Positions 4,529-29,646 of a DNA stretch of 32,000 nucleotides are shown one piece after another. Both the position numbers and the translations under genes were made by a program. The notes under the pieces were generated by a model. That model ran no database searches. It had not been told where the DNA came from and saw only the letters and a list, made by a program, of their open reading frames with translations. The stretch comes from Methanohalophilus sp. Its GTDB lineage: Archaea; Halobacteriota; Methanosarcinia; Methanosarcinales; Methanosarcinaceae. How positions within the stretch are numbered: position 1 is the stretch's first letter; every line of letters starts with the position of its first letter. The stretch is from contig NZ_JASGLW010000009.1 in NCBI RefSeq assembly GCF_030156785.1, positions 54,359 through 86,358 on the forward strand, given 5' to 3'.

Positions 4529-4625
4529 TAGATGGATTTTAAACTCTTTAATACATAAAATGTTTGTAGAGCAACTTCACCTTTGTCAAAACATTTAATA
4601 TAAATCTCCCTGCTTATATGTTCCT

Positions 4626-5423
4626 ATGCTCTATTTTGTGGGTCTGGGTCTTTTTGACGAAAAGGATATCTCTCTGAAAGGTCTGGAAGTGATAAAGCAG
4701 GCGGATGAGGTTTATGTTGAATTCTACACGTCCCGCCTTATGGGCTCTGATCAGGAGAAAATGGAAGCTCTCTATGGCAGGGAACTGAATGTTCTCAGCA
4801 GGGAAGAGGTGGAGCAGGATCCTTGGTGGCTGGAAAGGGCAAAGGAAAAAGATGTTGTTTTCCTGACAGGAGGGGACACCATGGTTTCCACCACTCATGT
4901 AGATCTGCGGCTTCGTGCACAAAGACTGGGAATACAGACGCAGCTTATTCATGGCTCTTCAATTGTGAGTGCAGTTTGCGGTCTTTCAGGACTCCAGAAC
5001 TACAGGTTTGGCAAGGCTGCCACTGTTCCCCATCCATACACAAGTAGTCGAGGTAATACTATAATCTCGGAATCCCCATATAATGCTATAGTCCAGAACA
5101 TTGAGCAGGATCTGCATACCCTTGTTTTCCTTGATATCGACAAGGATAAGGGGTACATGACGGTTCCCGAGGCTGTAAATCTGCTTCTTACGGTTGACAA
5201 TCGCAGGGATTGTGTGCTTGCGGATCGCATTGGTGTGGGAATTGCCCGAGCTGGGTCGCCTGTACCGGTTGTAAAAGCTGATTTTCTTCCTAGGCTCAAG
5301 GATTATGATTTTGGAGAACCTCTTCAGATTCTTGTAATTCCGGGTTCATTGCATTTTCTTGAATCCGAAGCACTTGTGGAGTTTGCGGATGCACCTGATG
5401 AAGTGCTGGAAATTGACGATTAA
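4626..5423 (+). CDS. dphB: diphthine synthase
   Basis: 265 aa. The MLYFVGLGLFDEKDISLKGLEVIKQADEVYVEFYTS N-terminus is of the tetrapyrrole-methylase type, and the length is typical for archaeal Dph5. Confidence 0.9.
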   Translation: MLYFVGLGLFDEKDISLKGLEVIKQADEVYVEFYTSRLMGSDQEKMEALYGRELNVLSREEVEQDPWWLERAKEKDVVFLTGGDTMVSTTHVDLRLRAQRLGIQTQLIHGSSIVSAVCGLSGLQNYRFGKAATVPHPYTSSRGNTIISESPYNAIVQNIEQDLHTLVFLDIDKDKGYMTVPEAVNLLLTVDNRRDCVLADRIGVGIARAGSPVPVVKADFLPRLKDYDFGEPLQILVIPGSLHFLESEALVEFADAPDEVLEIDD

Positions 5424-5466
5424 CCCGCCCTTAACAGAAAATCATTTATAGCTACAGATAGACGAA

Positions 5467-7113: not shown

Positions 7114-7145
7114 GGAAATGTATTTTATAGTAAGGATGTGACAAA

Positions 7146-7427
7146 GTGGCTGCAGAACTTGCTGAAAAAGTCGAGCGTTATGAACGCCTGCTACGGCAGG
7201 CCCTTGAAAAGGCTGTTATTTCTCCGATTGAGGGCTCCCATATGAAATGTGTAGGGGAGGATTTCAGAGAAATGGCCGAATCATATTATAAGGATGGTAT
7301 GTATTTCATAGAATCAGATGATCTGGTAAATGCCCTTGTTTGTTTCAGCTATGGTCATGCATGGCTGGATGCAGGAGCAAAACTGGGTGTATTTGATGTT
7401 GACGATGACGTATTGTTTACTATATAA
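7146..7427 (+). CDS. small conserved archaeal protein (DUF357-like)
   Basis: 93 aa with a GTG start. The YGHAWLDAGAKLG segment matches my recollection of DUF357. The family assignment is from memory only. Confidence 0.55.
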   Translation: MAAELAEKVERYERLLRQALEKAVISPIEGSHMKCVGEDFREMAESYYKDGMYFIESDDLVNALVCFSYGHAWLDAGAKLGVFDVDDDVLFTI

Positions 7428-7462
7428 ATGAGACATGGAAGAAATTGTGAGGAGATAAGTTT

Positions 7463-7804
7463 ATGCCAAACTATCATGTGACCCTTGAAGCTGCCTGGTT
7501 GGTAAGGGATGTAAAGAGTGCCGATGATGCTATCGGTGTTGCGATCGCAGAAGCCGGAAAACGTCTGAATCCAAAACTTGACTTTGTTGAAGTTGATGTA
7601 GGAACTACCTTCTGTCCTGCATGTAATGAACCAATAAGCAGTGTATTCATGGCTGCAAATACTGCAATTGTTGGTTTGGTTCTCCAGATGAAGGTTTTTG
7701 ATGCGGAAACCGAGGAACATGCATCACGAATAGCAAAGTCTGTTATTGGGAGGGCATTAAGAGATGTGCCCCTGAGCGTTATCGAAGTGGAGGATTTCGA
7801 GTAA
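7463..7804 (+). CDS. UPF0212/DUF555-like small protein
   Basis: 113 aa. The N-terminus [14 protein letters not shown] and the FCPACNEP segment are typical of the archaeal UPF0212 family as I recall it. Confidence 0.6.
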
Positions 7805-7816
7805 CGGTGGTCTTTA

Positions 7817-8707
7817 ATGACTGAAACGATTTCCGTGGTGGGGCATGCTGCTCTCGATTATCTTTTTGAGGTTGAGAGGATTGCTTCACCAAATGAATCA
7901 TATCCAATTATAAAGTACGATACTTTTTTTGGTGGAGGAGCTGCCAATATTGCTGCGGCAATTGCAACTCTTGGAGGGGATGTTTCCCTGATCTCGGCTA
8001 TAGGTGATGATTTTGAGCGTACAGGTTTCAAGTCACATCTGGAAAACCTTGGTGTGGATTTGTCGCTTCTGTACCGGATTGAAAATGAAAAATGTACTCG
8101 TGCATTTGTATATACGGATAGGCAGCACAACCAGTCATCATACTTCTACTGGGGGGCATCCGCAAAGCTTCCTGAATTAGAACCTCCTGAAGTTGATTTT
8201 GTCCATCTTGCAACAGCTGAGGCAAATTTTAATGCTCGCATGTCAAAAAAAGCCGGATTTGTATGTTTTGATCCGGGACAGGATCTGGTTACATATTCAA
8301 AAGAAAATCTGGTTACAATACTTGATAATACAGACATTCTTTTTGCAAATAGGCATGAAATTAGAAGGGTTTGCAGCATGACACACAGGTCATTTGACGA
8401 TCTCAAAAATAGTATTGAGACAATTATCGTGACATGTGATACCGGAGGCAGTCGCATCTATTATAGAGATTCACAGTTTCATATTCCTGCTGTAAAAGTT
8501 GAAGCGGTTGATCCTACAGGAGCCGGGGATGGTTACAGGGCCGGTTTCCTTGTAGCTTTCAAAAAAGGTTATCCTGTAGAAACATGTGGGAAGATTGGCG
8601 CAGTTGTAGCATCTTTTGTTGTGGAGCGTACCGGTTGCCAGACTAACCTTCCAACATGGGAAGTTATGCAAAAAAGATATGAAGAGAAATTTGGGCAGTT
8701 GCCCTGA
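7817..8707 (+). CDS. PfkB-family carbohydrate/nucleoside kinase
   Basis: 296 aa. It has the GG dipeptide region FGGGAANIA and the DPTGAGD anion-hole motif. Confidence 0.85.
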   Translation: MTETISVVGHAALDYLFEVERIASPNESYPIIKYDTFFGGGAANIAAAIATLGGDVSLISAIGDDFERTGFKSHLENLGVDLSLLYRIENEKCTRAFVYTDRQHNQSSYFYWGASAKLPELEPPEVDFVHLATAEANFNARMSKKAGFVCFDPGQDLVTYSKENLVTILDNTDILFANRHEIRRVCSMTHRSFDDLKNSIETIIVTCDTGGSRIYYRDSQFHIPAVKVEAVDPTGAGDGYRAGFLVAFKKGYPVETCGKIGAVVASFVVERTGCQTNLPTWEVMQKRYEEKFGQLP

Positions 8708-8715
8708 TTCTCTCT

Positions 8716-11373
8716 TTACTTGTTTTCACTTTCAATTACTGCATGTGCTGCTGCAATCCTTGCGATTGGTACCCTGAACGGGGAGCAGCTAACATAGTTA
8801 AGACCGATTTCATGGCCAAACTTGACTGATTTAGGATCTCCACCATGCTCACCACAAATTCCTATCTTGAGGTTTTTACGTGTGGATCTTCCCTTTTCAA
8901 TTCCAATTTTAACAAGCTGACCAACGCCATCCTGATCGAGTACTGCAAATGGATCATCTTCCAGTATACCTTTCTCAACGTACAATGGCAGGAATTTTCC
9001 GGCATCGTCGCGACTGAATCCGAATGTGGTCTGGGTAAGATCATTTGTACCAAATGAGAAGAATTCTGCTTCTTTTGCAATCTGATCTGCTGTGATGGCA
9101 GCACGTGGTAACTCAATCATGGTTCCTACCAGATAGTCAATTTCAGCACCACATTCTTTCATAGTGGCTTCTGCCGTAGTTTTAACGTTCTGTTTGATCA
9201 GTTCAAGTTCCCTTACGTGGCTGACCAGTGGAATCATAATTTCAGGAACTATTTTCAACCCTTCTCTGGTAAGTTCGCAGGCAGCTTCTATGATTGCGCG
9301 AACCTGCATTTCATAGACTTCAGGGTAGGTAATTCCAAGTCTGCATCCGCGGTGTCCAAGCATTGGGTTTATTTCCTTGAGCACTTCTACTCTGTCAAGT
9401 ACTCTTTGGACTTCATCAATTTCTTTTTTATCGGCGCCTTTCATCTCGAGCTCGCGGATTTTTTCGATTAGCTCTTCTTGATTAGGGAGGAATTCGTGTA
9501 GTGGTGGATCAAGCAGCCTGATGGTTACAGGGAAGCCGTCCATTGCCCTGAAAATGCCGATGAAATCCTCTTTCTGCATTGGCAGTAACTTTTCAAGAGC
9601 CTGCTTCCTGCTTTTGACATCTTCCGCCATAATCATTTCGCGGACAGCCGGGATTCTTTCTTCTCCAAAGAACATGTGTTCGGTACGGCATAATCCTATT
9701 CCTTGTGCACCGAAATCTCTTGCAACCGTTGCATCGTGTGGCGTATCTGCATTGGCACGGACTTTAAGGCTGCGAATTTCATCAGCCCATGTGAGAATAG
9801 TATAAAGTTCGCCTGTAAGTTTTGGGGGTATTAGGTCAACTTTTCCGAGGATTACATTCCCGGTGGAGCCATCGATGCTGATATAATCGCCTTCCTTGAC
9901 GATTACTTTGCCAGTTGTAAATTCTCTTTTTTCCATATCAATGGAAATCGCCCCACAACCTGTAACACAGGGTTTGCCCATACCTCGAGCAACTACCGCA
10001 GCGTGGGAGGTCATTCCTCCTCTTACGGTAAGAATACCTTCTGATGCATCCATTCCACCGATATCTTCAGGGGAGGTTTCAGTCCGGACAAGGATTGTTT
10101 TGATACCTTCTTTGGCTTTATCTTCCGCATCTTCTGCTGTGAAAACAACTCTTCCGACTGCAGCTCCTGGTGAAGCAGGAAGGCCTGTGGCTATTACGTC
10201 ATAAGTAGCATCAGGATCAAACATTGGGTGAAGAAGCATGTCAATTTGGGCAGGTTCAATTCTTGATACAGCTGTCTTCTTATCAATTAATCCTTCTTTT
10301 TCCATATCCACTGCAATCTTGATGGCTGCAGCAGCAGTGCGTTTGCCAGTACGGGTCTGGAGTATGTAGAGCTTACCCTCCTGAATTGTGAACTCAATAT
10401 CCTGCATATCACGGAAGTGATTCTCCAGCTTTTTGTAAATCTTTTCAAGTTGTTCATAAACTTTCGGCATATTCTTTTTAAGATTCTCGATGGGCTGTGG
10501 CGTACGAATACCTGCAACTACATCTTCTCCCTGAGCGTTGGTAAGGTATTCACCAAAGAAGCGTTTTTCACCAGTTGCCGGATCACGGGTAAAGGCAACT
10601 CCTGTGCCACAGTCATCTCCCATATTACCGAATACCATACTCTGGACATTAACGGCTGTCCCCCACTCATCGGGTATTCCATTGAGTTTCCTATATTTAA
10701 TAGCTCTCTGGTTATTCCATGAGTTGAAAACAGCATCAATTGCCATCTGGAGTTGCTTTCTTGGATCCTGTGGGAAGTCTTCGCCAGTGTGCTCTTTAAT
10801 TACTTCTTTAAATTTATTCACCAAGTCTTTTAGTGAGGCAACATCAAGTTCCGTATCTTGCTCAACACCAAGTTCGTGCTTCTTTTCTTCAAGAATCGAC
10901 TCAAATTTGGCATATTTTATGCCAAGCACAACATCTCCAAACATCGTGAGGAAACGTCTGTAGCTATCATAAGCAAAACGTTCATTATTGGATTTCTTGG
11001 CAATTCCCTTGACGGTTTTATCATTAAGACCCAGATTCAGAACAGTATCCATCATACCGGGCATTGATACACGGGCTCCCGATCTGACAGAAAGAAGCAG
11101 GGGGTTATCTGGGTCCCCAAATTTTTTCTTATTTGCCTCTTCTAGTTTCAAAAGGGCTTCATCGATCTGTTCCAGAAGACCATCAGGATATTTATGATCC
11201 CTGAGATAAAGAACACAAACTTCTGTAGTAATTGTAAATCCGGCCGGAACCGGAATGCCTAGGTTTGCCATTTCTGCAAGGTTGGCGCCTTTGCCACCAA
11301 GCAGGTCCTTCATGCTGTTGTTGCCTTCAGTATAGCCGTTTCCGAAAAGGTACACGAACTTTTTATTTGCCAC
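8716..11373 (-). CDS. ppdK: pyruvate, phosphate dikinase
   Basis: It contains [10 protein letters not shown], the phosphohistidine loop [13 protein letters not shown] and the C-terminal PEP-utilizing domain CGEHGGDP. I trimmed the start from the 920-aa track ORF to GTG at 11373..11371, which sits 7 nt after GGAGG and gives (M)ANKKFVYLF and about 885 aa. Confidence 0.93.
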
Positions 11374-14661: not shown

Positions 14662-14733
14662 GCCGTCGTGGCTTAGTGGTATAGCGGCTGATTCGTAATC
14701 AGCAGGCCGGGGGTTCGAATCCCCCCGACGGCT
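14662..14733 (+). tRNA. tRNA-Thr (anticodon CGU)
   Basis: The manual cloverleaf is: acceptor GCCGTCG/CGACGGC, anticodon stem GCTGA/TCAGC, loop TTCGTAA (anticodon CGT), T arm GGGGG-TTCGAAT-CCCCC, discriminator T. No CCA is encoded. Confidence 0.9.
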
Positions 14734-15082: not shown

Positions 15083-15682
15083 TCAGATTACAGCAATCTT
15101 TCCCGCATCAGTTATCGAATAGCCGTCTTTCTCTTCGATATATCCCATGGTCTTGAGTTCACGCAGGTGGTTGTATGTCATTCCTTTTGAGATTCCAATG
15201 TTAACTGCAATGGTCTTTACCGACTTGATGCCCGACTGGATCTGTTCAAGAATTAGTTTTTTTGTGTCAGAAATATTAAAACTCAAGATAGGGAAATCAA
15301 TGATGAAATTGTCTTCCTCAGTGACATATACTATCTTCTTTACCATATCACTTCTGGCATAAGATCCAAAGAGAGCGCCGAATGCCTGCGGTTTCCTACC
15401 ACCGGAAACATTCACGATTATTTCGTTTCCTCGTGCGTATTCATCTTCTATCAAGTTTGCCACGTCCTGAGCTACGCGCACGGTGTCGTAGAGGGATGTT
15501 ATCTTCTTTTCAATCTCTATTACCTTCCCAAATGTAGCTTCCAGCATCTGTTCAGCCTGACGTTTTTTTTCTACAGTTCCATCTTCGGTTAGGATGATGA
15601 GTTTGGAAGGGGATAGGCGAGTCACACATGTGATTACTGGTTCGATAGCGTAGAGGGTAGTAATTAGGGTTAGGTTGGACAT
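15083..15682 (-). CDS. csa3: Csa3-like CRISPR-associated transcriptional regulator (N-terminal CARF domain + C-terminal wHTH)
   Basis: 199 aa counted from ATG 15682 (MSNLTLITTLYAIEPV). The Rossmann-like N-terminal domain has VSGGRKPQ. The C-terminal segment SVKTIAVNIGISKGMTYNHLRELKTMGYIEEKDGYSITDAGK is a winged helix. The gene is divergent from cas3. Confidence 0.75.
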   Translation of the reverse strand: MSNLTLITTLYAIEPVITCVTRLSPSKLIILTEDGTVEKKRQAEQMLEATFGKVIEIEKKITSLYDTVRVAQDVANLIEDEYARGNEIIVNVSGGRKPQAFGALFGSYARSDMVKKIVYVTEEDNFIIDFPILSFNISDTKKLILEQIQSGIKSVKTIAVNIGISKGMTYNHLRELKTMGYIEEKDGYSITDAGKIAVI

Positions 15683-16042
15683 CAGATTTACTTTATTGGT
15701 TAGGAGTTTATATTGCTTCCTATATATGATGCATATGTTTTTGTAAATATCTACTACCATTAATTATATATCCAACGTTTACTTATCTACATTATATGTC
15801 ATCAAGCACTCATGCAGATCTTGATCATCGTTTCGAGATGCCTATAACCTTAGAGAATAATAAAGAATGTATAAGATGATAATTTCTGGACAAAAATTAT
15901 ATTACCTATCAAATCGATTTATTTCAATAGTTTATTTGTTGGAAGGGATTTTTGATAACATTACTTTCATTTAATTTGGGAGTACAAAATAAACGGAACG
16001 CAATTACAATAGCCTTGTAGCAACAAAAAGGGAGGTTGGATC
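15683..16042. promoter_or_regulatory. divergent csa3/cas3 intergenic control region
   Basis: 360 bp AT-rich spacer between the two start codons. It contains the 23-bp motif copy at 15931..15953 and GGGAGG 7 nt before the cas3 ATG. Confidence 0.4.
15931..15953 (+). repeat. 23-bp motif TTTATTTGTTGGAAGGGATTTTT, copy 2 (90 bp upstream of the cas3 ATG)
   Basis: It matches 15007..15029 at 19 of 23 positions. Confidence 0.4.
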
Positions 16043-18823
16043 ATGGCTGGCAAAGTTGAGAAGCTAATGTATCTTAATTGGGGCAAATCCATATCATCAG
16101 GAGAGGGGGATAATCTTGATTATCATTTACTTGTTTACCATTGTCTGGATGTTGCAGCGGTTGGAACTACCCTATTGGAAAATGATAAGCTATTGTTAGA
16201 GAAATTCAAAGAACATATTCCATTAGACGATGAACAAATCATCTCATTGGTGTCGTTCTATCTTGCAATCCATGATTTGGGCAAATTTTCAGAGAGATTT
16301 CAAAATCTTCAACCAAATTTACTAATTTCTTTAAGAGGGCATGATAGCAACAGAAGTTACACTCTTCGGCATGATAGCATGGGTTTTTACCTCTGGAGAA
16401 CGATCTGGCAAACTGTATGGAACGAGAACTGGCTTTGTCTGGACAAAAGTACCTTTAATTCATTAGATTGGAATGATATTATACTCCCGTGGATTAAATC
16501 AGTAACAGGACATCATGGTAATCCTCCAAAACCATATATGGACAATGGCATTGCAGTGAATCAAAATGAATTGTTTACTGAAGAAGACCTTTCAATGGCA
16601 AGTTCATATGTACAAAAAGTATCATCTTTGTTATTGAAAGATGCTTTCAAAGGTCTCTCTGGGCCTGAGGGCTATGAATACGAATTTGAAGATTTGGAAA
16701 CTGCATTCAAGAGTACTTCATGGTTACTTGCAGGTATTGTAATAGTAAGTGATTGGATTGGTTCTTCAAACGAACAGTTTGAATATTTATCAGTTCTTTT
16801 TCCTCTGGAGGAGTATTGGGAAAAATACGCTTTGCCTTCAGCAGAAAAAGCGCTGAACAATTCGGGTATTTTGCCTTCAGTGATTTCACCGAGTACTGGA
16901 ATGGATATTCTCTTTCCCAAAATCGATGTTCCGAGTCCAATGCAAGATCATATATCGAGCTGTCCCATTGCAGATAGTGCTCAACTCTTCATATTGGAAG
17001 ATACTACAGGAAGTGGCAAAACGGAAGCTGCTTTATGTTTGGCTCATCGTATAATGGCAAAGGGTATTGCAAACGGGATTTATTTTGGTCTGCCAACAAT
17101 GGCAACTTCTAATGCAATGTATGGAAGGTTAATGGATTCTTACAAAAAGTTGTATGTACCTAATTCCCTTCCTTCACTTGTGCTTGCGCACGGTCAAAGT
17201 CATCTATTGCATGTTTTCAGCAAATCTATTGATACTGAGGTCCACGAAAGTAGCAATTATGGAGATGCTTCATCAAATGATGCTACTGTTTCTTCACAAT
17301 GCTCTACATGGATAGCTGACAATCGCAAAAAAGCTCTGCTTGCTGATGTTGGTGTAGGAACTATTGACCAGGCTTTGTTGGGAGTTCTTCCTTCAAACCA
17401 TCAATCACTGAGATTACTGGGTTTGTCGCGCAATGTCCTGATAGTTGATGAGGTTCATGCGTATGATCCATATATGCATAGATTGCTATGCAGTCTTTTG
17501 GAATTCCATGCATCATTGGGTGGTAGTGCAATTCTTCTCTCTGCTACGCTACCGGTAAAACATCGTCAGGAATTGGCATCCCACTTTTGCCGTGGACTCG
17601 GTTGCTCAGTGGATGCTATTTCCAGTGACAAATATCCCCTTGTTACACATGTTTGCGAAAGTGGTCTATCGGAAATTCAAATAGAACCTCGTGTTGGTAC
17701 GGAACGTACTGTCAATGTTGAATTTTTCAATGATGAGTCATCTGTCAGAGAAAGACTTGTGAAATGTTCTATTGAGGGGAAGTGTTGTTGCTGGATTCGA
17801 AACACTGTTGATGATGCGATTGAATCATACGATATACTTGTATCTGAATTAGGAAGCGATTCTGTAATTCTTTTCCATGCAAGATATGCAATGGGAGATC
17901 GTCTGAAAATTGAAAATGATGTTCTTAGTGCATTCGGAAAAGAAAGTGATGTTCAGAAACGTAAGGGTAAAGTGCTAGTAGCAACTCAGGTAGTAGAACA
18001 GTCTTTGGATATAGATTTTGACTACATGGTTACTGATCTTGCTCCAATTGACCTTATCTTTCAGAGAGCCGGTCGTTTACAACGCCATTGTCGTGACAAA
18101 AACGGAGCTCTAAGTGATCGTGATGAACGGGGCACTCCACTTCTTGGAATCCTTTCTCCAAAATTGGGCGGGGACATCTCATCAGACTGGTATTCGGATA
18201 TGTTTCCTAAAGGGGCATATGTTTACCAATCTCACGGACAATTGTGGCTTACTGCTAATTTGCTTGCAGAACGTGGAAAGTTCTGCATACCGGATGAAAG
18301 TCGATATTTCATAGAGTGTGTTTTTGGCAAAGATGCTGGTACCAAAGTTCCCTCAGAATTGAAAGTTCTTGATGAACGTGCATATGGGGATTCAATGGCT
18401 CAAACCTCAATGGCGAATTTCAAATCTCTAAATTTTTCACAGGGTTATGAGCGTTCGGGTACACAATGGCTGGATGATGTTGTAACTCCAACCCGTCTTG
18501 GGGAATCGGTGAACATTCATCTTGCACGGTTTGAAAATGGGATTCTTGTTCCGATGGTAAAATCTGATAGGTTTTCATGGGAAATGAGCCAGTTAAGTGT
18601 TAGCGGCGGTCGTATCAGGTACTCAGACGACTATGACAAGGAAGTTAATGAGTTGATCCAGAAAGCTCAGGATTCAATGAAAGACAAAGGTAAGTGGAGT
18701 ATATTGATTCCTATGTTTTCAGATGATGGGATTAACTGGAAGGGTACTGCAAAAGACAAATACAACAGGCAAGTCAAGTTAGTTTACAATTCGGAAATTG
18801 GTCTTTGTCTAAATAAAGAATAA
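16043..18823 (+). CDS. cas3: Cas3 (HD nuclease + SF2 helicase), type I-E
   Basis: 926 aa. HD motifs are HCLDVAAVG and AIHDLGKFSERFQ. Helicase motif I is DTTGSGKTEAAL and motif II is DEVHAYD. Confidence 0.95.
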   Translation: MAGKVEKLMYLNWGKSISSGEGDNLDYHLLVYHCLDVAAVGTTLLENDKLLLEKFKEHIPLDDEQIISLVSFYLAIHDLGKFSERFQNLQPNLLISLRGHDSNRSYTLRHDSMGFYLWRTIWQTVWNENWLCLDKSTFNSLDWNDIILPWIKSVTGHHGNPPKPYMDNGIAVNQNELFTEEDLSMASSYVQKVSSLLLKDAFKGLSGPEGYEYEFEDLETAFKSTSWLLAGIVIVSDWIGSSNEQFEYLSVLFPLEEYWEKYALPSAEKALNNSGILPSVISPSTGMDILFPKIDVPSPMQDHISSCPIADSAQLFILEDTTGSGKTEAALCLAHRIMAKGIANGIYFGLPTMATSNAMYGRLMDSYKKLYVPNSLPSLVLAHGQSHLLHVFSKSIDTEVHESSNYGDASSNDATVSSQCSTWIADNRKKALLADVGVGTIDQALLGVLPSNHQSLRLLGLSRNVLIVDEVHAYDPYMHRLLCSLLEFHASLGGSAILLSATLPVKHRQELASHFCRGLGCSVDAISSDKYPLVTHVCESGLSEIQIEPRVGTERTVNVEFFNDESSVRERLVKCSIEGKCCCWIRNTVDDAIESYDILVSELGSDSVILFHARYAMGDRLKIENDVLSAFGKESDVQKRKGKVLVATQVVEQSLDIDFDYMVTDLAPIDLIFQRAGRLQRHCRDKNGALSDRDERGTPLLGILSPKLGGDISSDWYSDMFPKGAYVYQSHGQLWLTANLLAERGKFCIPDESRYFIECVFGKDAGTKVPSELKVLDERAYGDSMAQTSMANFKSLNFSQGYERSGTQWLDDVVTPTRLGESVNIHLARFENGILVPMVKSDRFSWEMSQLSVSGGRIRYSDDYDKEVNELIQKAQDSMKDKGKWSILIPMFSDDGINWKGTAKDKYNRQVKLVYNSEIGLCLNKE

Positions 18824-18835
18824 GAAGGTAATACC

Positions 18836-20422
18836 ATGGTATTTAATTTGATTCATGAAAAATGGATATGGGTAAATAGGCAGGATGGTAAAAGGGAAAA
18901 GATAGCTCCATGGGAGATTACTGACAAATTAGATTCGAATCCTGTTATTTCTCTGGCTGCACCACGCCCAGATTTTAATGGTTCTCTGATCCAATTTCTG
19001 ATTGGATTGGTACAAACTACTATGTCTCCTAAAAATGAAAGGGAATGGAGGAAACATTTTATCAACCCTCCAACAACGGATGATTTGCAAGAAACATTTG
19101 ATAATGTGTCCAATGCTTTCAATCTTGATGGTGAAAATGAGCGTTTTATGCAGGATTACGATTCTTTTGAAGGGGTTGAAAATCGTGTAGATTTGTTGCT
19201 TATGGAGATGCCAGGTGAAAAAACTATTAAAGATAATACCGACCACTTTATAAAAAGAGATACAGTCTCGCAAATGTGTTTTTCTTGTTGTGCAACTGCA
19301 TTATTCAATTTACAATTAAATGCTCCCACGGGAGGGCAGGGTCATCGCACTTCACTCAGAGGTGGTGGTCCTTTGACTACTTTGGTCTTGGGAAATAATT
19401 TGTGGCAAACAATATGGTTGAATGTCATTTCAGAAGATAATTTTGAACGATTGGGAAATATTGACAAAAATGCAATAAGCGATATTTATCCGTGGATGGG
19501 TCCCACTCGCACAAGTGAAAAGAAAGGAATGGATACGACTCCCATGGATGTAAATCCCAAGCAGATGTATTGGGGAATGCCACGTAGAATCAGTATTGAT
19601 TTTTACGATCTTAAAGAAGGCTTTTGTGATGTATGTGGTTGTGAGACAGATAGACTTGTTTCCCGTTATGTTACAAAGAATCATGGAATAAACTATGAAG
19701 GAGGTTGGTGTCATGTTCTGAGTCCATATCGTGAAACAAAAGATTCTATAATATCACTACATCCGAGACCTGGTGGCATAACCTATCGCCACTGGCTGGG
19801 TCTGATTCAAAATGACCCTGAAAATGGGTAGCATCCTTCTTTGTCTTTTGAACGATTTGTCGGCAAACAGTTGGATTTGGCAAATTTGGATGACGTATTG
19901 CAACGTTCTCCTCAACTATGGGCATTCGGTTATGATTTCGATAAAATGAAAGTCCGTTGCTGGTATGAAAGTATTATGCCTTTATTCAATGTTCCTGAGA
20001 ATATCAGGTCCACTTATGAATCCATTGTATCTCAATTGATAAAGACTGCTGAAATTATCGGTGATAACACAGAAAGGTGTATAAAACAGGCATTATACGG
20101 CAAAAATCCGATTAGAGGGGATATCTCCTTTATAGACGCCAGCTTCTGGCATGATACAGAATCCAAATTTTATAATGTACTCAATCAATTAATCCCTATA
20201 CTGAAAAATAATTTGGATGCCATTGATCTGAAACTACAATGGGTTAGAAGTTTGTCACAAGTATCTGAAAGATTGTTTGATCAATATTCCCAATCCATGC
20301 AATTCAGTGTAGTTGATCCTGAAAGAATAGCTTTAGCTCGCAGAGATCTTAGAAGATACAATTACGAAGGTGGTAAGAAAATAAGAGATACTCTGGGGTT
20401 GCCTGAAAAATCTAAAAAATAA
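18836..20422 (+). CDS. cas8e: Cas8e/Cse1 (CasA) Cascade large subunit, interrupted by one in-frame TAG (19829..19831)
   Basis: The track ORFs 18836..19831 and 19841..20422 share a frame (19841-18836=1005). The N-terminus MVFNLIHEKWIWV and the segment LRGGGPLTTLV parallel E. coli CasA (MNLLIDNWIPV, LRGGTPVTTFV, both from memory). Together the two parts give about 528 codons, which is the normal Cse1 size. Confidence 0.85.
19829..19831 (+). other. in-frame amber (TAG) codon inside cas8e
   Basis: The sequence reads ...CCT GAA AAT GGG TAG CAT CCT TCT TTG TCT TTT GAA CGA..., giving PENG-TAG-HPSLSFER in one frame. Confidence 0.95.
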
Positions 20423-20459
20423 ATGTTTGATTGTACTATAATTGTATTTGAAAAGGTGA

Positions 20460-20969
20460 TTGGAATTGACTATAAAGAAAAATTCGTTGGACAAGAATCC
20501 AGAAGCGTGTCAAGCTTTACTGACATGGTGGAAGGATTTGGACAATAATCGAGGGGATAGAGCCGATCTTCGCAGGTGCCACAGCATTGTGGATGTAGTT
20601 TTTAATCCTGCATACCACAAATTGTGGTTGGCTCTGAACAAGCTCGGCTTTGGAAATAGGGATTCTGTTGCAGTAATTGCCGGAGTATTGGTTCATGTGA
20701 AAAATCATCAGGCAGGGGAATCATTTGCTGCTCAAATGGCGAGTACCAAAGATGGTTCAAATACACAGGTTAGTGGATTAAGGTTTAAAAGACTGTTAAA
20801 AATCAAGGATAAGGACGAATTATTTAGTTCAATTGTTCGAATTGTCAAGTTAATGGATGGAAACGTCAATGTTTGCAATCTTGCGAACAGTCTCTACTGG
20901 TGGAATGATATCACAAAGAAAGAATGGGCTTACAGTTACTATGAAAAGGCACCTAAAACTAAAATTTAA
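20460..20969 (+). CDS. cse2: Cse2 (CasB/Cas11e) Cascade small subunit
   Basis: About 168 aa. The segment WWKDLDNNRGDRADLRRC is typical of Cse2, and the gene sits between cas8e and cas7. The start is TTG 20460 or TTG 20466, the latter 6 nt after GGTGAT. Confidence 0.85.
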   Translation: MELTIKKNSLDKNPEACQALLTWWKDLDNNRGDRADLRRCHSIVDVVFNPAYHKLWLALNKLGFGNRDSVAVIAGVLVHVKNHQAGESFAAQMASTKDGSNTQVSGLRFKRLLKIKDKDELFSSIVRIVKLMDGNVNVCNLANSLYWWNDITKKEWAYSYYEKAPKTKI

Positions 20970-20988
20970 GGACTTAGGAGAAAATAAG

Positions 20989-22098
20989 ATGACTAAATTT
21001 ATACAAATACACACGCTCGTATCGTATCCCCCATCCAATTTGAATCGTGATGACTTGGGAAGACCAAAGACTGCCGTTATGGGCGGGACTCAAAGACTCA
21101 GGGTCTCTTCACAGAGTCTTAAAAGAGCATGGAGGACATCAGACACTTTCAAAGAAAGTCTTGGTGACCACATAGGAATTCGTACAAAACGCATGGGTAT
21201 CAGTATTTTCAAAGCATTGACAACAGGCAGACGTCTGATAGATATTGTGAATAACAATGTTGATGCGGTTAAGGTTAATCCAGAAGTGTCCGAAAAAGAA
21301 GCAAAAGAGTGGGCAAAGTCAATTGCAGGGGTATTTGGGAAATCTAAGAAAACGGATAGTGATGATGCCTTGGTAGATCTTGAAATAGAGCAACTGGCAC
21401 ATTTTAGTCAGGAGGAAATATCAGCAATTGATGACCTAATCGCTAAAGTATCAGCAAGTGGAAAATCTCCTTCAAAGGAAGATCTCAACCTTTTGAGAAA
21501 GGATCACACTGCTGTGGATATTGCCATGTTCGGGCGTATGCTTGCATCCGACACTAAATTTAATACTGAAGCTGCTGTACAGGTTTCTCATGCTATTACT
21601 GTCAACGAGGTTGCAGTCGAGGATGATTATTTCACTGCCGTGGATGATCTGAATAGAGGTGAAGAAGATATGGGCTCAGCCCATATCGGAGAAACGGAAT
21701 TTGCTTCCGGTTTGTTCTATACTTATGTTTGTGTTGATTGTGAACTTCTGGAAAACAATCTTGGTGGGAATAAGGATCTTGCAAAAAAGGCTTTATGTGC
21801 ATTAGTAGAGTCAATAGCAAAGGTATCTCCTACGGGAAAACAGAACAGTTTTGCATCAAGGGCATATGCATCATACATGATGATCGAGAAGGGTACTCAG
21901 CAACCACGTTCACTTTCGGTTTCATATCTGGAATCGATTAAGGGGAGAAACATGTTAAAAAATGCCATAGAGTCTCTCAAGCAGACAAATGAAAAGATGG
22001 AACAAGTATACGGTAATTGTTGTGATGAAAGGCTGGAAATGAATGCTTATACAGGTGAAGGTAGTATGGATAAAATGCTGGAATTTGTAAGCAGCTAA
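20989..22098 (+). CDS. cas7: Cas7e (CasC/Cse4) Cascade backbone subunit
   Basis: I trimmed the start to ATG 20989, which follows TAGGAG. MTKFIQIHTLVSYPPSNLNRDDLGRPK parallels the E. coli CasC N-terminus. The product is 369 aa. Confidence 0.95.
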   Translation: MTKFIQIHTLVSYPPSNLNRDDLGRPKTAVMGGTQRLRVSSQSLKRAWRTSDTFKESLGDHIGIRTKRMGISIFKALTTGRRLIDIVNNNVDAVKVNPEVSEKEAKEWAKSIAGVFGKSKKTDSDDALVDLEIEQLAHFSQEEISAIDDLIAKVSASGKSPSKEDLNLLRKDHTAVDIAMFGRMLASDTKFNTEAAVQVSHAITVNEVAVEDDYFTAVDDLNRGEEDMGSAHIGETEFASGLFYTYVCVDCELLENNLGGNKDLAKKALCALVESIAKVSPTGKQNSFASRAYASYMMIEKGTQQPRSLSVSYLESIKGRNMLKNAIESLKQTNEKMEQVYGNCCDERLEMNAYTGEGSMDKMLEFVSS

Positions 22099-22118
22099 AC
22101 ATCAAGGAGTCGATTGGC

Positions 22119-22865
22119 GTGAAAGATTATTTGATTTTCCGCTTATACGGTCCAATGGCTTCATGGGGTGACATCGCAGTAGGTCCTTATAGACCTAGTT
22201 TTGATCACCCTTCAAAATCAGCGATATTCGGTCTGTTGGGAGCAGCTCTAGGTATTCGTAGGGAAGAAGAAGAAAAGCAACTGGAATTAGCTTCTGCTTA
22301 TCATTATGGAGTTATTATAAACTCTTCTGGGTTTATGCTTCGTGATTATCACACATCTCAGGTTCCTGCTTCTGGTAAAGGTAGAAATAAGAAGAAATTT
22401 TTAACAAGAAAAGATGAACTTGCCGTTCCCAAGTATGAATTAAATACTATCCTTTCGACACGAGACTACTATTGTGATGGGCTCTACACTGTGGTTCTTT
22501 ATTCGAGAACAGAGAATCCACCTTATTCTCTTGAAATAATCAGAAACAGTCTGAAAAAGCCTTCATTTTCGATGTATTTGGGAAGAAAATCATGTCCTTT
22601 GGCACTTCCTCTTGACCCTATGATAATATCTGCTCCCAATATGAAAGAAGCACTTGCAAACATTGAGTTTAACGATGGAGCTTTTGTGGGAAAATTAATT
22701 GATAATGATATTTGCAGACTCTATTGGGATGATCCTGAAGAAAATATTTCATTTGAGCATAGTATTTCCCGACGTGATAACGTATTGAGCCGGAAAAGGT
22801 GGCAGTTCTCAGATAGGAAGGAATACTATTCAATGGTGAATTGGAGGAATGATGCATGTACATGA
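22119..22865 (+). CDS. cas5: Cas5e (CasD)
   Basis: GTG start. MKDYLIFRLYGPMASWGDIAV parallels E. coli CasD (MRSYLILRLAGPMQAWG, from memory). Confidence 0.9.
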   Translation: MKDYLIFRLYGPMASWGDIAVGPYRPSFDHPSKSAIFGLLGAALGIRREEEEKQLELASAYHYGVIINSSGFMLRDYHTSQVPASGKGRNKKKFLTRKDELAVPKYELNTILSTRDYYCDGLYTVVLYSRTENPPYSLEIIRNSLKKPSFSMYLGRKSCPLALPLDPMIISAPNMKEALANIEFNDGAFVGKLIDNDICRLYWDDPEENISFEHSISRRDNVLSRKRWQFSDRKEYYSMVNWRNDACT

Positions 22866-23536
22866 GTAGAGCAAAACTTCTTCCAATTGCAGTTTCAAAT
22901 AACGGCTTATGGAAATACATGGGAAATAATTATAATGTCCATCGGCTGGTCTGGTCTTTGTTTTCGGGAGGATCAGACAATACAAGGAATTTCTTGTATC
23001 GGCAGGAATCAAATGGAAAGCTACCAACTTTCTATATTGTATCTGAGGAAAAACCTGATGACAAATCTGGTTTATGGGATCTTGACATAAAGCCATATAA
23101 TCCGGTTTTAAAATCAGGGCAGAATCTTTATTTTTCAATTCGTGCAAATCCAATAGTTTCAAAAAGAGATGAGAATGGAAAGCAGCATCGCCATGATGTA
23201 GTAATGGATGAAAAGCTCCGCATAAAGAAAGAGAACCCAAATAAAGTGTGTATGGATGTTTCTGAAATAGTGCAAAATAAGGGGGTTGAATGGCTACAAA
23301 AGAGATCAGATTCTTATGGTTTTTCGATTGATACTAACCGGGTCCGTGCGGATGGGTATAAGAGCCACAAGTTCTATAAAGCAAAGGGAAAACATTATAT
23401 CAATATCAGTACGATTGATTTTAATGGGATTCTGACGATTAATGATCCGGAATTGTTCAAAAAGGCTCTTTACCATGGGATTGGTCCGGCAAAAGGTTTT
23501 GGTTGTGGTTTACTTCTTGTTAGACCGGTTCGCTAA
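22856..23536 (+). CDS. cas6e: Cas6e (CasE/Cse3) crRNA endoribonuclease
   Basis: N-terminus MYMSRAKLL and glycine-rich C-terminal loop GIGPAKGFGCGLLLV. It overlaps the cas5 stop. Confidence 0.9.
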   Translation: MYMSRAKLLPIAVSNNGLWKYMGNNYNVHRLVWSLFSGGSDNTRNFLYRQESNGKLPTFYIVSEEKPDDKSGLWDLDIKPYNPVLKSGQNLYFSIRANPIVSKRDENGKQHRHDVVMDEKLRIKKENPNKVCMDVSEIVQNKGVEWLQKRSDSYGFSIDTNRVRADGYKSHKFYKAKGKHYINISTIDFNGILTINDPELFKKALYHGIGPAKGFGCGLLLVRPVR

Positions 23537-23544
23537 ATTGAGGA

Positions 23545-24727
<1,183 letters not shown>

Positions 24728-24849: not shown

Positions 24850-27447
24850 GAGTTCCCCACACACGTGGGGATGAACCGGCGCAGCCTCGTACATCATCTC
24901 AAAGATCATAGAGTTCCCCACACACGTGGGGATGAACCGGGAGTTTTGTTCCGTTGCGAAGTTTCCCGATGGAGTTCCCCACACACGTGGGGATGAACCG
25001 TACACCCAAACCACCGATAATGCCTGAAATTAAGAGTTCCCCACACACGTGGGGATGAACCGTCAACATTAACAGTTATCTCCTTTAGCTTGTGGGAGTT
25101 CCCCACACACGTGGGGATGAACCGTTCGGCCGGCAGTACGCATTCGATGTATTGATGAGTTCCCCACACACGTGGGGATGAACCGGTTGGGTTGGATGCG
25201 GATAAACCGATCAACCCGAGTTCCCCACACACGTGGGGATGAACCGTGATATACTAAAACACCGAACATTACGCTTTAGAGTTCCCCACACACGTGGGGA
25301 TGAACCGGATTAGCTGGAGATCTTGTAATAGGGGGGATAGAGTTCCCCACACACGTGGGGATGAACCGGCTCCCAGGACTATTGACTATATAATGGATAT
25401 GAGTTCCCCACACACGTGGGGATGAACCGTTATTGTAACACTCATCAATGATTTGGAAAACGAGTTCCCCACACACGTGGGGATGAACCTAGTTGCTGGA
25501 AACTCTAAGGTCAGCATCCCTGGAGTTCCCCACACACGTGGGGATGAACCGATGGCAGGCGAGTTTTTCAAACAAAAAAAGGAGAGTTCCCCACACACGT
25601 GGGGATGAACCGTTGCAGGGTATGGCGTAAGCGTAAAAGTAAGGGAGTTCCCCACACACGTGGGGATGAACCGTTACAACGAGTGCTTGGCTGATTCTGC
25701 TTACTGAGTTCCCCACACACGTGGGGATGAACCGTGGTGAGAAACCCACTTCACTGCTACGACCAGGAGTTCCCCACACACGTGGGGATGAACCGCATTA
25801 GCAGATGTATCCATACCCCCGGTAATTGAGTTCCCCACACACGTGGGGATGAACCGTTGCAAACGGAGTAGCTGGTTTGGATGTAAATGAGTTCCCCACA
25901 CACGTGGGGATGAACCGCAGAGGGGATTTCCGCCAATTCACGTATAGATGAGTTCCCCACACACGTGGGGATGAACCGTGGAATTCTCTTTCCGCTGCAA
26001 CAAAACGCAAAGAGTTCCCCACACACGTGGGGATGAACCGGGGGCCCTTTAATGTTGGATAGCTCGGACGCCGAGTTCCCCACACACGTGGGGATGAACC
26101 GGGGCCCTTATGCAGGATTACCCACACAGTAACGAGTTCCCCACACACGTGGGGATGAACCGCAATACGTGGGTGTTGTCGATCTGGTGTACTGCGAGTT
26201 CCCCACACACGTGGGGATGAACCGATCCACGTATGAGTCAGCATTGAAAAAATGGGGAGTTCCCCACACACGTGGGGATGAACCGCACCAACGTATCACC
26301 CGCTGACATCTTCCATAGAGTTCCCCACACACGTGGGGATGAACCGTAACACAAAAAATCCAGATCATGATCAAACCAAGAGTTCCCCACACACGTGGGG
26401 ATGAACCGATGCCACTGATATCACCAAATGTTTGTTTTGAGAGTTCCCCACACACGTGGGGATGAACCATAGCTCCGAATGCTAAAGGGGTCAGAGGTAC
26501 TGAGTTCCCCACACACGTGGGGATGAACCGCAATGCATGGGTATTGTCGATCTGGTGTACTGGAGTTCCCCACACACGTGGGGATGAACCGTTATCGCAT
26601 AAATCAAAAACCGATTTGTTCACGAGTTCCCCACACACGTGGGGATGAACCGTGTGGGAGACCAGTATATAGCCACCGATTCGAAAGAGTTCCCCACACA
26701 CGTGGGGATGAACCGCGCTTGCAATCGGTGCCGGACAGGACGGAGCAGAGTTCCCCACACACGTGGGGATGAACCGCAGAGGGGATTTCCGCCAATTCAC
26801 GTATAGATGAGTTCCCCACACACGTGGGGATGAACCGCGTTATCTGTAGTTTCATTCAAAACCACCTTTGAGTTCCCCACACACGTGGGGATGAACCGGC
26901 TATCGCTATCGGTGCGGGGCAAGATGGTGCGAGTTCCCCACACACGTGGGGATGAACCGCACATATTTACAATCCTGATACCGATTCATATGAGTTCCCC
27001 ACACACGTGGGGATGAACCGTCTGCCTTTGGCATTTCCCTAAATGCAACCTCGAGTTCCCCACACACGTGGGGATGAACCCAGACTCTAGCTCATGAAAT
27101 AGGCCATGCAAAGGAGTTCCCCACACACGTGGGGATGAACCGAAAAATTGAATTACAGCCACACAAACCAATTAGAGTTCCCCACACACGTGGGGATGAA
27201 CCGAGCTAAAAAATATGATTAAAGGTTGTGTCGCTGAGTTCCCCACACACGTGGGGATGAACCGGAATTTTAGGTGAGAGGGTTAGATTTGGACGCGAGT
27301 TCCCCACACACGTGGGGATGAACCGGTTATGTCGCTAACCTAAATGCAAACGATTATGAGTTCCCCACACACGTGGGGATGAACCGGTTTAGGGTTAGGC
27401 AGTGAAGCCCGTCTAGCAGAGTTCCCCACACACGTGGGGATGAACCG
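24850..27447 (+). CRISPR. Type I-E CRISPR array with 43 repeats of 29 nt and 42 spacers
   Basis: The repeat GAGTTCCCCACACACGTGGGGATGAACCG has a CCCCAC/GTGGGG stem and an ACAC loop. Its orientation matches the E. coli I-E repeat, so transcription runs from the cas2-side leader. Hand counting gives 36 spacers of 32 nt, 5 of 33 nt and 1 of 34 nt, and the lengths sum to 2598 bp, which equals the array span. Confidence 0.98.
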
Positions 27448-27493
27448 GTAGATCTACTAGGCCGTAGGAGGTCTATTAGTTGTCAATGTAGAT

Positions 27494-27530
27494 ATTCGAA
27501 TTCAAGATCCACTATAACAAGGATTGAAAC
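27494..27530 (+). repeat. solitary 37-nt I-B/III-type CRISPR repeat, copy A (ATTCGAATTCAAGATCCACTATAACAAGGATTGAAAC)
   Basis: It is 36/37 identical to 29311..29347. It ends in ATTGAAAC, the canonical 8-nt crRNA 5' handle of Cas6-processed I-B/III repeats. It is unrelated to the I-E repeat. Confidence 0.8.
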
Positions 27531-28178
27531 GCAACTTCGAGAAGCTGTGATTCCTTGGAAACACCGCAGTATGCTGCAGAATTTATGGCGTCCACAGCTT
27601 CACAGGAAAGCCCTTCGGAGGTAGCCCATACAAAAGGATCTCGAACAAGGACTTTGCATTTTACCTTTCTCTCGGATTATCTGGTTGATAGTTATAATGC
27701 CGTTTGTTCATGTTTCGGCACCTGATTCAAGTGCTTCCTGCGCCAAGGTTATAGGCTTTGCCGTTTGCATCGTAGGCTTTCTTCCCACCTTGCAGATGGG
27801 GAGTGTGACAGAATTGCCTTCGATAATCGATGTTTCGGATAGAACAGTTGATTGTAGGACTGGCATACCGTAGGCTGTCACTGTGGAGTATTTAAAGGGA
27901 AGTTAAGGAACTGGACCATCTCTTGTCTAATTTGGGCCATTTTTGGAATGATACCAATGGTTTTGAAGTGTTTGAAGCCGTAGCAGACTGATTACTAAAT
28001 TATAAGTAGTTATAAGTTATTATATATTACTATTAATTAACTATAAATATTATTAACTTCTTATAATGAAAAGCTTCTAGTCGCAAAAGACCAGAAAACC
28101 ACAAAATAAACACAAAAGAAAATTAAAAATTAATCCCAAAATAAAGTTAAACTCAAAAAACAAAAGGAGTTGGCAAAA

Positions 28179-28400
28179 GTGAATGCAGAAGCAACAACTA
28201 TCCCCATAACAAAATCGATTCGGGACAGGCTGAAAAGCTTTGGTCAAAAAGGGGAAACCTATAGCGATATTCTTACACGCATGATGGATTCGATCGATAG
28301 AGACGAATTTATGGATCGAATGTACCGGCGGCTTGAAGAAAAAGATCAGTTTGTCTCACTCGATAGCTACGAGAGCGAGTTAAATGGAGTACAAAATTGA
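28179..28400 (+). CDS. putative antitoxin (small RHH-like DNA-binding protein) of a RelE/ParE pair
   Basis: The segment TIPITKSIRDRLKSFGQKGETYSDILTRMM has the beta-strand and helix pattern of archaeal RHH-type antitoxins. The gene overlaps the toxin start by 17 nt. The start is TTG 28170 or, better spaced from AAGGAG, GTG 28179. Confidence 0.55.
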   Translation: MNAEATTIPITKSIRDRLKSFGQKGETYSDILTRMMDSIDRDEFMDRMYRRLEEKDQFVSLDSYESELNGVQN

Positions 28401-28668
28401 GATACACACCGAAGTTCAGAAATTTTTGAATGCACAGGACAGCAAAACGCAGCACCGTCTAATTAAAGGATTAAAACGGTTGAAAAACGATCCTCTATCG
28501 CATGATATCAAAAAGCTGAAAGGCACAAAAGGAAGACCGGATTTATATCGTTTACGAATTGGAAATTACAGAGCTATTTTTTCTATTGAAGATGATACCG
28601 TCAAGGTTATTGAAATAATACCTCGCGAGAAAGGTTATGGGTGGCTTGCCCTTCTACTCGTAGCCTGA
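28384..28668 (+). CDS. relE: RelE/ParE-family type II toxin
   Basis: 94 aa. The segment DLYRLRIGNYRAIFSIEDDTVKVIEIIPREKGY matches the RelE/StbE family signature (YRxRxGdYRxIy...V..I.hR...Y). Confidence 0.75.
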   Translation: MEYKIEIHTEVQKFLNAQDSKTQHRLIKGLKRLKNDPLSHDIKKLKGTKGRPDLYRLRIGNYRAIFSIEDDTVKVIEIIPREKGYGWLALLLVA

Positions 28669-28931
28669 TTTTCGGTTATGGGCGCAGCTTATCGCTCACT
28701 CATTCACCGGGTTTTGTAGACATTCACGGGGGAGCAACAAACGGAAAATCAACTTTAGAATGTTTTTTCATTAACCACATAATTATAACAAAAATAGCAC
28801 CAACCAACATAAAATCAGATTTAGTGGCAAGGTTACTCCAACGGAAGGGGACAATATAGCAATGAATACCAATTGCAAGTAATAATACAGGAAGTGGATC
28901 TTTAAAAGTATATGGGGATGAAACAATATTT

Positions 28932-29126
28932 TCACTCTTCCATCGGCTCGTATTGGATTCCGTTGTCACCCTTATACGGTTTGTGATGGTCGACGTCTCC
29001 CCAAAAAATCTTCTCCGGGATACCGTCTGGATAGGCTTTACACTTCCACCAGCCAAGAATTCCACGATTTAGGTGCTTACATGTATCACACAGTGGTGGT
29101 TCTCCGATCATGATATCATTCCTCAA
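28932..29126 (-). CDS. small Cys/His-containing hypothetical protein (64 aa)
   Basis: The ORF contains CDTCKH...WKCKAYPDGIPEKIFWGDVDHHKPYKGDNGIQYE. This resembles a small protein family I recall from Firmicutes, with unknown function. It overlaps the upstream ORF by 11 nt, which suggests coupled translation. Confidence 0.45.
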   Translation of the reverse strand: MRNDIMIGEPPLCDTCKHLNRGILGWWKCKAYPDGIPEKIFWGDVDHHKPYKGDNGIQYEPMEE

Positions 29127-29322
29127 ACTGCTCTTTCATCCAGTCTCCAAACTCCTTTGCAATTGGACGGGGGGACGGGTTGTTCATGTATTCGGACCAT
29201 AATTCCGCTATAAATTCTCTATCGTTTACAATAGCATAGCGAGATACACCTTCACTAATTTTATCTGCGTTTTTATTCGTAAAGAAGTTTGCCACTTTTT
29301 CTAGTCTATAATTCGAATTCAA
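29116..29322 (-). CDS. small hypothetical protein (up to 68 aa)
   Basis: The ORF is upstream of and overlaps 28932..29126. The annotated TTG start lies inside repeat copy B, and an internal GTG at 29295 is an alternative start. I recognised no motif. Confidence 0.3.
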   Translation of the reverse strand: MNSNYRLEKVANFFTNKNADKISEGVSRYAIVNDREFIAELWSEYMNNPSPRPIAKEFGDWMKEQFEE

Positions 29323-29347
29323 GATCCACTATAACAAGGATTGAATC
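29311..29347 (+). repeat. solitary 37-nt I-B/III-type CRISPR repeat, copy B (ends ...GGATTGAATC)
   Basis: Direct copy of 27494..27530 with a single mismatch at 29346 (T for A). Confidence 0.8.
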
Positions 29348-29646
29348 TACCCCTCCACCTTTTCATTCTACCTTACAATATTCACAAAATCATAGCAATA
29401 TAAATCAAAAGAAGGGTTAGTGGAATCAGTCTCACAAGGATGTTATAAGCCAGTCCGGTACAATCATCATTTAGCAGGTTTATGGTTTCAGCTTTCTGGC
29501 TTTTAAAACCTGCACTGGCTTTTGAAATGATGTTGATTGCTTTTTTGATAATATTTAATAGTTTTTCGTGGTGGAAGGATGCTAAAAGTAAATGGGTTGT
29601 ATAGATAAAGATCCAGATTATTCGACTGGAATATAAGGATTTGAAT

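Follow-up and report, generated by a model that had tools for sequence, protein, structure and literature searches.

CRISPR repeats that stand alone, or nearly so, have been described in several settings. Standalone repeats near type III loci have often been judged to be degraded, nonfunctional remnants (PMC10120712, Shmakov et al. 2023). Solitary repeats and mini-arrays carried by viruses are well established, and some of them act as RNA anti-CRISPRs (PMC10651486, Camara-Wilpert et al. 2023; PMC11656645). Virus-borne mini-arrays, as PMC11656645 summarizes the work of Medvedeva et al. 2019, carry an ∼36-nt spacer that targets a rival virus, and integration of viruses into arrays through such solitary units has been proposed (PMC8616872, citing Faure et al. 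2019). In CreTA, according to the accounts of Li et al. 2021 given in PMC10120712 and PMC10097628, the small RNAs CreT and CreA are encoded inside the cognate type I-B cas operon, and CreA is a repeat-spacer-repeat unit at spacer length that is partly complementary to the creT promoter. Here we describe two 37-nt CRISPR repeats that enclose 1,780 bp of gene-containing DNA in the archaeon Methanohalophilus sp. (RefSeq assembly GCF_030156785.1, contig NZ_JASGLW010000009.1); they lie in a stretch of 32,000 nt (contig positions 54,359 to 86,358), the whole of which we call the window. We think the chances somewhat better than even that the pair is a decayed type I-B/III-style (CRISPR-DR7) array which mobile-element DNA entered, and that it is now probably an inert two-repeat remnant.

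The locus shares several properties with degraded and orphan arrays (PMC10120712): few repeats, a mutated downstream copy, no adjacent cognate cas genes, no detectable target, and a second CRISPR-cas locus close by within a composite region of an archaeal genome. It differs from them in that its 1,780-nt interval holds genes, including a truncated virus gene, and in that DR7 (I-B/III) repeats lie beside a type I-E operon. As with the solitary repeat units of viruses and plasmids, isolated full-length host-type repeats adjoin virus-derived genes, and recombination of a solitary repeat into an array, as proposed, would give a repeat-virus-repeat layout like this one. Unlike solitary virus repeats and RNA anti-CRISPRs, however, the locus has no intact element and no evident promoter, and there are two copies, one of which lies against a broken structural gene; the cognate host Cas system of an RNA anti-CRISPR is likewise not in evidence in the window. 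Virus-borne mini-arrays, as summarized in the source cited above, also combine two host-type repeats with viral DNA, but at spacer length rather than with an interval of 1,780 nt. With CreTA, as those accounts present it, the locus has in common repeat-like elements and a toxin-antitoxin (TA) module in one place, and a toxin that possibly keeps a CRISPR-related locus from being lost; unlike CreTA, it has a RelE/ParE protein toxin with a protein antitoxin, we found no complementarity, and no cognate Cascade is encoded in the window.

The repeat pair and its family

The 37-mer ATTCGAATTCAAGATCCACTATAACAAGGATTGAAAC occurs exactly in copy A and, with one mismatch (GAAAC to GAATC), on the same strand in copy B (Table 1). 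The copies have 35 identical nt in common, are in direct orientation, and start 1,817 nt apart; no match to the 37-mer arose in 100 shuffled sequences, and none is expected by chance. We required a covariance-model match over the full 37 positions, and both copies match model positions 1 to 37 of Rfam RF01320 (CRISPR-DR7) above its gathering score of 37. Copy A ends in the canonical ATTGAAAC (8-nt CRISPR RNA [crRNA] handle); copy B ends in ATTGAATC, its one change falling at position 36, an otherwise invariant A. Such a change in the downstream copy is typical of a trailer-end repeat. Thus, the pair of direct repeats around a 1,780-bp interval that had been noticed in an earlier, sequence-only reading of this DNA was borne out by exact matching, by the shuffles, and by the Rfam model.

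That reading had also assigned the repeats to the Cas6-processed I-B/III type and likened them to a Methanosarcina repeat. We found this Methanosarcina repeat verbatim in a public viral contig (L043); it is identical to the window repeat at 32 of 37 positions. A metagenomic contig (L007) carries a genuine array, beside type III-like genes, whose repeat is 33/37 identical to the window 37-mer and whose last repeat is degenerate at its 3′ end. With the Rfam match, these two relatives make the family assignment (DR7, Cas6-type I-B/III) sound. On the metagenomic contig (AMWB02167119.1, positions 1 to 10871), the DR7 array is followed by a gene for a group II intron-like reverse transcriptase, by a type III-like set of three RAMP genes with the gene for a 987-aa protein, and by a SLOG/TIR (CAP12-type) gene on the opposite strand.

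Relatives of the repeat are also found on viruses. Tailed-virus contigs in IMG/VR (L039, L040, L042, and L044 to L047) carry Methanosarcina-type DR7 solitary repeats, some of which retain only the 3′ 25 nt. In L044, a full-length repeat (6068-6104) separates the gene for the large terminase from the structural gene after it and shares the strand of these genes; L047 provides a further case (Table 1). Two other contigs, L041 and L048, have two-repeat DR7 mini-arrays with a 36-nt spacer. The exact 26-nt core of the window repeat had no match in 185,579 representative genomes and none in viral contigs, and in metagenomes a search for it yielded one array, with a related repeat. No DR7 array was reported for Methanohalophilus in a study of its CRISPR content (PMC6491703).

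Several observations argue against a working array. Spacers in such arrays measure ∼30 to 45 nt, and the sole interval here measures 1,780 nt; each copy fits the description of a solitary repeat, with no partner within ∼100 nt. Apart from copies A and B the window has none, not even in degenerate form; elsewhere in it the 37-mer reaches at best 21 to 23 of 37 identities, and no degenerate repeat was found inside or after the interval (best, 21/37). As the sequence-only reading had stated, I-B and type III cas genes are absent from the window, whose only cas genes are type I-E. Since the window contains no cognate Cas6, I-B, or type III genes, since the handle of copy B is mutated, and since the flanks have no detectable target, the pair is probably inert in CRISPR terms here.

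Content of the enclosed DNA

Four kinds of sequence form a mosaic in the 1,780-bp interval (Table 1). The inventory drawn up from the letters alone (a TA pair, two small minus-strand open reading frames [ORFs], one of them starting in copy B, and a stretch devoid of intact ORFs) was accurate.

The ORF that starts in copy B is 68 aa long and formally extends from 29116 to 29322 on the minus strand: its TTG start and an upstream stop codon lie inside copy B, which supplies the first four codons. Its match to the head-morphogenesis family phrog_324 covers only positions 552 to 609 of 624. An exhaustive HMMER search with this ORF found 457 relatives. Of the best 149, 130 exceed 150 aa in length and match at the extreme C terminus, a median of 7 residues following the match, and 131 have the catalytic zinc motif HExxH 15 to 50 residues upstream of it; several relatives carry Phage_Mu_F. 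The window ORF retains the part with EFIAE and NNPSPRPIAK, and HExxH and everything upstream of it are missing. A C-terminal-only match, the missing HExxH, and a start and stop contributed by the repeat mark it as a 5′-truncated gene. A MuF protein (SPP1 gp7/Mu F type) has a Phage_Mu_F domain and a length of ∼450 to 650 aa, and only the C-terminal ∼64 codons are present here, without that domain; the ORF is the remnant of a MuF-like gene, not a member of the family, and is cut at most ∼10 nt from copy B's 5′ edge.

The second minus-strand ORF (28932-29126; 64 aa in full) belongs to phrog_33375, a family with phage relatives. In viral contigs this family is found directly after the gene for a 460- to 540-aa Phage_Mu_F protein, in head modules that run from portal and MuF to protease and capsid genes. 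The nearest relative of the 64-aa ORF (69% identity; Logan contigs L019 and L020) lies between genes for proteins of 137 and 438 aa of no assigned function. Because this relative is not beside a MuF gene, small genes of the phrog_33375 type also occur outside head modules. No other head-module fragments were found in the interval besides the two minus-strand ORFs. A virus gene fragment and a TA module flank the repeats, with no intact virus, prophage, or other element, and the broken structural gene beside copy B means that no working virus is there now.

The TA module encodes an antitoxin, whose ORF is open from 28170 (DUF7557, 27.4 bits; Pfam cutoff, 25), and a RelE/ParE-family toxin (ParE_toxin, 32 bits; cutoff, 23; phrog_1213, 1.4e-18). 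The two genes overlap by 17 nt, and the pair qualifies as a type II TA module and is kept in relatives. Its DNA is similar to that of other Methanohalophilus contigs (84% identity over 526 nt and 77% over 650 nt, the latter between window positions 27999-28647 and loci L033 to L038). The related modules sit among housekeeping genes, at ordinary chromosomal sites, and none of the 14 closest TA loci has a DR7-like repeat nearby. The TA genes and ∼170 nt of AT-rich upstream DNA (window 27999-28656; L027 to L038) recur in at least two different housekeeping contexts at 77 to 84% DNA identity, and the module seems, from these comparisons, to move as an ∼650-bp unit.

The remaining DNA is nondescript. 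The ORF-free ∼640 bp follow copy A directly; whichever frame is read, they match no family in Pfam, PHROGs, or NCBIfam, and the DNA of their left part (27531-27998) resembles none of the loci compared. A further 263 bp separate the convergent ends of the TA and virus-derived genes. The interval DNA as a whole had no match in phage and plasmid collections.

Origin of the repeat pair

How would such an arrangement have come about? In the explanation that we favor, the two 37-mers would be the last surviving repeats of a DR7 array that once stood at a variable Methanohalophilus locus and is now beside an unrelated I-E locus. The enclosed DNA would be mobile-element debris (the MuF-like 3′ end and its neighbor gene, the TA module, and ∼0.7 kb of nondescript DNA) rather than a spacer or a purpose-built cassette. 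We infer that the array was invaded by DNA of a virus or provirus, through recombination at one of its repeats or spacers or through a break inside a spacer, and that the element and the remainder of the array were later deleted. The interval may have survived because recombination between copies A and B would delete the antitoxin gene and release the toxin, penalizing cells that lose it; ordinary repeat-spacer units can be lost freely. The mosaic content suggests several events rather than a single capture. Decay of an array also fits the location of the only change, at the 3′ end of the downstream copy, which is likewise where the last repeat of the metagenomic array is degenerate. Among the three possibilities raised in the sequence-only reading, a relic array with an insertion is the best fit, but the part of it that posited a discrete TA-bearing element did not hold, because the insert is a mosaic.

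Some points weigh against a relic. The copies are 36/37 identical, and in a nonfunctional relic this would mean that the event was recent, that gene conversion took place, or that the copies are under constraint. The virus gene reaches to ∼10 nt from the repeat border and both repeats are complete, an outcome that repeat- or spacer-directed capture would also yield. Neither a full array of origin (sought by the exact 26-nt core in 185,579 representative genomes) nor an empty site (sought in the one close relative) turned up, and the window has no cognate cas genes. Finally, the history proposed here is drawn from a single locus.

The interval could instead be a true "giant spacer," that is, the direct product of joining to repeat borders and not of later decay. 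Three routes could lead to it: a virus-borne solitary repeat that recombined, by homology, with a repeat of the array; two array spacers that recombined with their protospacers, both on the same virus; or Cas1-Cas2 acting aberrantly to integrate a long fragment and duplicate the repeat. The insert is exactly where a spacer would be, between two complete, co-oriented repeats, and the virus gene is severed no more than ∼10 nt from copy B's 5′ edge; the DR7-type solitary repeats and two-repeat mini-arrays of tailed viruses make a donor with a repeat plausible, and virus integration through solitary repeats has been put forward (PMC8616872; PMC10651486). In public 31-mer assemblies the unit is a contig of 1,847 bp that begins and ends with the same 30 nt, as a circle of 1,817 bp would also do, but any 35-nt repeat would give a contig of this shape at k = 31. 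The precision of the junction is weak evidence, because the MuF homology can be followed no closer than ∼10 nt to the border and because random breakpoints in an array would often spare the repeats (in about half of cases for the flanking repeats, and in roughly a quarter by the estimate for both neighboring repeats) and in roughly a quarter of cases would land 10 nt or less from a repeat. A simple repeat-repeat crossover cannot join the middle of a gene to a repeat border: such a junction needs a break in or beside a spacer, recombination between spacer and protospacer, or integrase-type joining. Moreover, the insert consists of unrelated pieces (host-type TA, virus fragment, and nondescript DNA), unlike one contiguous stretch of a donor; no donor virus was found, and the sole Cas1-Cas2 in the window is type I-E. 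We therefore regard direct joining to the repeat borders as unlikely, and we give a similarly low, though not negligible, probability to the fuller scenario in which foreign DNA was captured at repeat borders and a kilobase "spacer" persists because its TA module punishes repeat-to-repeat deletion. The sequence-only reading had suggested repeats acting as recombination sites for a gene cassette; they may have been a route of entry, but there is no sign of a recurrent cassette, as the 14 closest TA loci lack such repeats.

The repeats might also derive from a decayed virus or provirus that used them as RNA anti-CRISPRs (Racr-like), soaking up Cas6 or Cas7 of a DR7-type system in the host or its neighbors. 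Both copies formally count as solitary repeats, each lacking a partner within 100 nt, the DNA around them resembles that of viruses or mobile elements, full-length and 3′-only DR7 repeats do occur in tailed-virus contigs, and anti-CRISPR action of solitary repeats as RNA has been demonstrated (PMC10651486). We nonetheless consider this improbable: an intact virus or prophage is absent from the locus, the structural gene that lies against copy B, on the opposite strand, is truncated, something that a working virus would not have, and a scan for bacterial-type promoters, in an archaeal host, found no convincing one directly upstream of either copy. The only CRISPR-Cas system in the window is type I-E, whose Cas6e would not recognize a DR7 repeat; Cas6e recognizes a different, hairpin repeat.

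Regulatory crRNA-like guides, in the manner of CreA or of mini-arrays, would have each repeat and the sequence that follows it repress TA, cas, or other promoters through an effector encoded elsewhere. Type III effectors need only one upstream repeat to mature a guide, standalone regulatory repeats are widespread and some target TA cargo (PMC10120712), and a TA module lies between the copies. But for the 38 nt after each copy, the best match in the 32-kb window (22/38) is within the range of shuffled sequence (20 to 24), the longest exact run is 11 nt, and none of the best matches is at a TA or cas promoter. Furthermore, the toxin is a protein of an ordinary type II system and comes with an antitoxin, the adjacent cas operon differs in type from the repeats, and the spacer-length interval that defines CreA and mini-arrays is missing (1,780 nt). 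The CreTA-like role proposed from the letters alone, together with the complementarity to TA or cas promoters that it predicted, thus found no support, and we consider regulation of this kind extremely unlikely.

It is also very unlikely that the arrangement is an assembly artefact, with one chromosomal repeat into which a 1.8-kb unit, located elsewhere or circular, was threaded through the 35-nt identity. The window lies within an 86-kb contig of a deposited assembly, 35 nt is shorter than ordinary reads and than the larger k-mers of metagenome assemblers, and the copies differ at position 36 as a linear arrangement predicts. In independent public 31-mer assemblies the interval is 100% identical in at least two other runs, but all of these contigs start and stop inside the repeats, and none runs from an outer flank through a repeat into the insert. 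They leave the linear order neither confirmed nor contradicted: one chromosomal repeat together with a circle of 1,817 bp would account for them just as well.

Like insertion sequences (IS) and other elements that interrupt arrays, the interval places foreign DNA between repeats; unlike these, it has no transposase, inverted terminal repeats, or target-site duplication, and its content is fragmentary and mosaic. No frame of the interval encodes a transposase domain. The idea that the 37-mers are the terminal repeats of an IS, miniature inverted-repeat transposable element, or other transposon was rejected, as the copies are direct and match a curated CRISPR model.

Genomic setting and implications

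The repeat pair lies in a variable region that spans from a tRNA-Thr gene (14662-14733) to a block of fasciclin, KH, Rio1, and eIF1A genes, with archaeal core genes on its flanks. Its right bound is set by similarity to the nearest relative genome (L004), which spans from 31934 down to 29631. No empty site could be defined, as the sole close relative, found through the Rio1 kinase gene, has a different synteny beyond the fasciclin gene, and no duplicate of the tRNA-Thr end that might serve as an attachment site was found.

Table 1. Positions of the repeats, the enclosed DNA, and neighboring features (window coordinates unless a contig is named)
Feature	Position	Strand	Description
CRISPR-DR7 repeat copy A	27494..27530	+	Full length, 45.7 bits
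CRISPR-DR7 repeat copy B	29311..29347	+	Full length, one 3′-handle change, 38.7 bits
Left part of interval	27531..27998	.	468 bp, without intact ORF
AT-rich region upstream of TA	27999..28178	+	Accompanies TA genes in other Methanohalophilus
Antitoxin gene (DUF7557, ribbon-helix-helix-like)	28179..28400	+	GTG start at 28179, 73 aa
RelE/ParE-family toxin gene	28384..28668	+	94 aa, intact
Gap between convergent gene ends	28669..28931	.	263 bp, without identifiable content
Small gene	28932..29111	-	59 aa from ATG; phrog_33375, 3.4e-12
3′ remnant of MuF-like head-morphogenesis gene	29116..29310	-	∼64 codons, C-terminal zinc-metallopeptidase module
Type I-E cas operon (cas3, cse1, cse2, cas7, cas5, cas6e, cas1, cas2)	16043..24727	+	Complete
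Type I-E array	24850..27447	+	43 repeats GAGTTCCCCACACACGTGGGGATGAACCG, spacers of 32 to 34 nt
Junction between last I-E repeat and copy A	27448..27493	.	46 nt: 32 nt spacer-like plus 14 nt; like neither repeat
AT-rich DNA 3′ of copy B	29348..29630	.	283 bp, part of variable region
Solitary DR7 repeat	L047, 4861-4897		IMG/VR tailed-virus contig

The region includes a type I-E operon and array, which the sequence-only reading had left out; copy A starts only 46 nt past the last I-E repeat. These 46 nt are all that separates the I-E array from copy A where a DR7 leader would lie. The last I-E repeat is intact and is followed by nonrepeat DNA; the lack of a degenerate terminal repeat suggests that the distal end of the I-E array was lost. 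None of the I-E spacers matches the interval. CRISPR content differs between Methanohalophilus species, and one isolate has an almost identical I-E repeat (PMC6491703).

Other features of the I-E locus deserve mention. Its repeats are essentially perfect, and one spacer, CAGAGGGGATTTCCGCCAATTCACGTATAGAT, is present twice, near 25918 and 26777. The cse1/cas8e gene (18836-20422) is split by an AAG-to-TAG change at 19829-19831; the premature stop is identical in SRR23823870, and contigs of SRR29026319 and SRR29026320 carry the gene unbroken (528 aa). Over 12 kb the two strains show 7 nucleotide differences, 5 of which are inside cse1. Divergently upstream of cas3, a gene on the minus strand (15083-15760) encodes a protein of 225 aa whose N-terminal domain is HFX_2341-like/Csa3-like and whose C terminus is a winged helix; this CARF/winged helix-turn-helix-like protein is probably a regulator of the I-E locus.

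As a relic, the repeat pair would carry little weight: it would show that the Methanohalophilus lineage once had or received an I-B/III-style array beside its I-E system, and that the remnants of such an array can trap mobile-element debris. If its junctions were repeat-directed, it would carry more, since virus integration via solitary repeats is a published proposal of which the literature we read on it describes no worked example; the locus would then offer a first concrete case of such integration, and of a CRISPR interval frozen by addiction genes. Selfish cargo would, if this is true, have a simple way to persist inside arrays, with a TA module to block its loss through the repeats.

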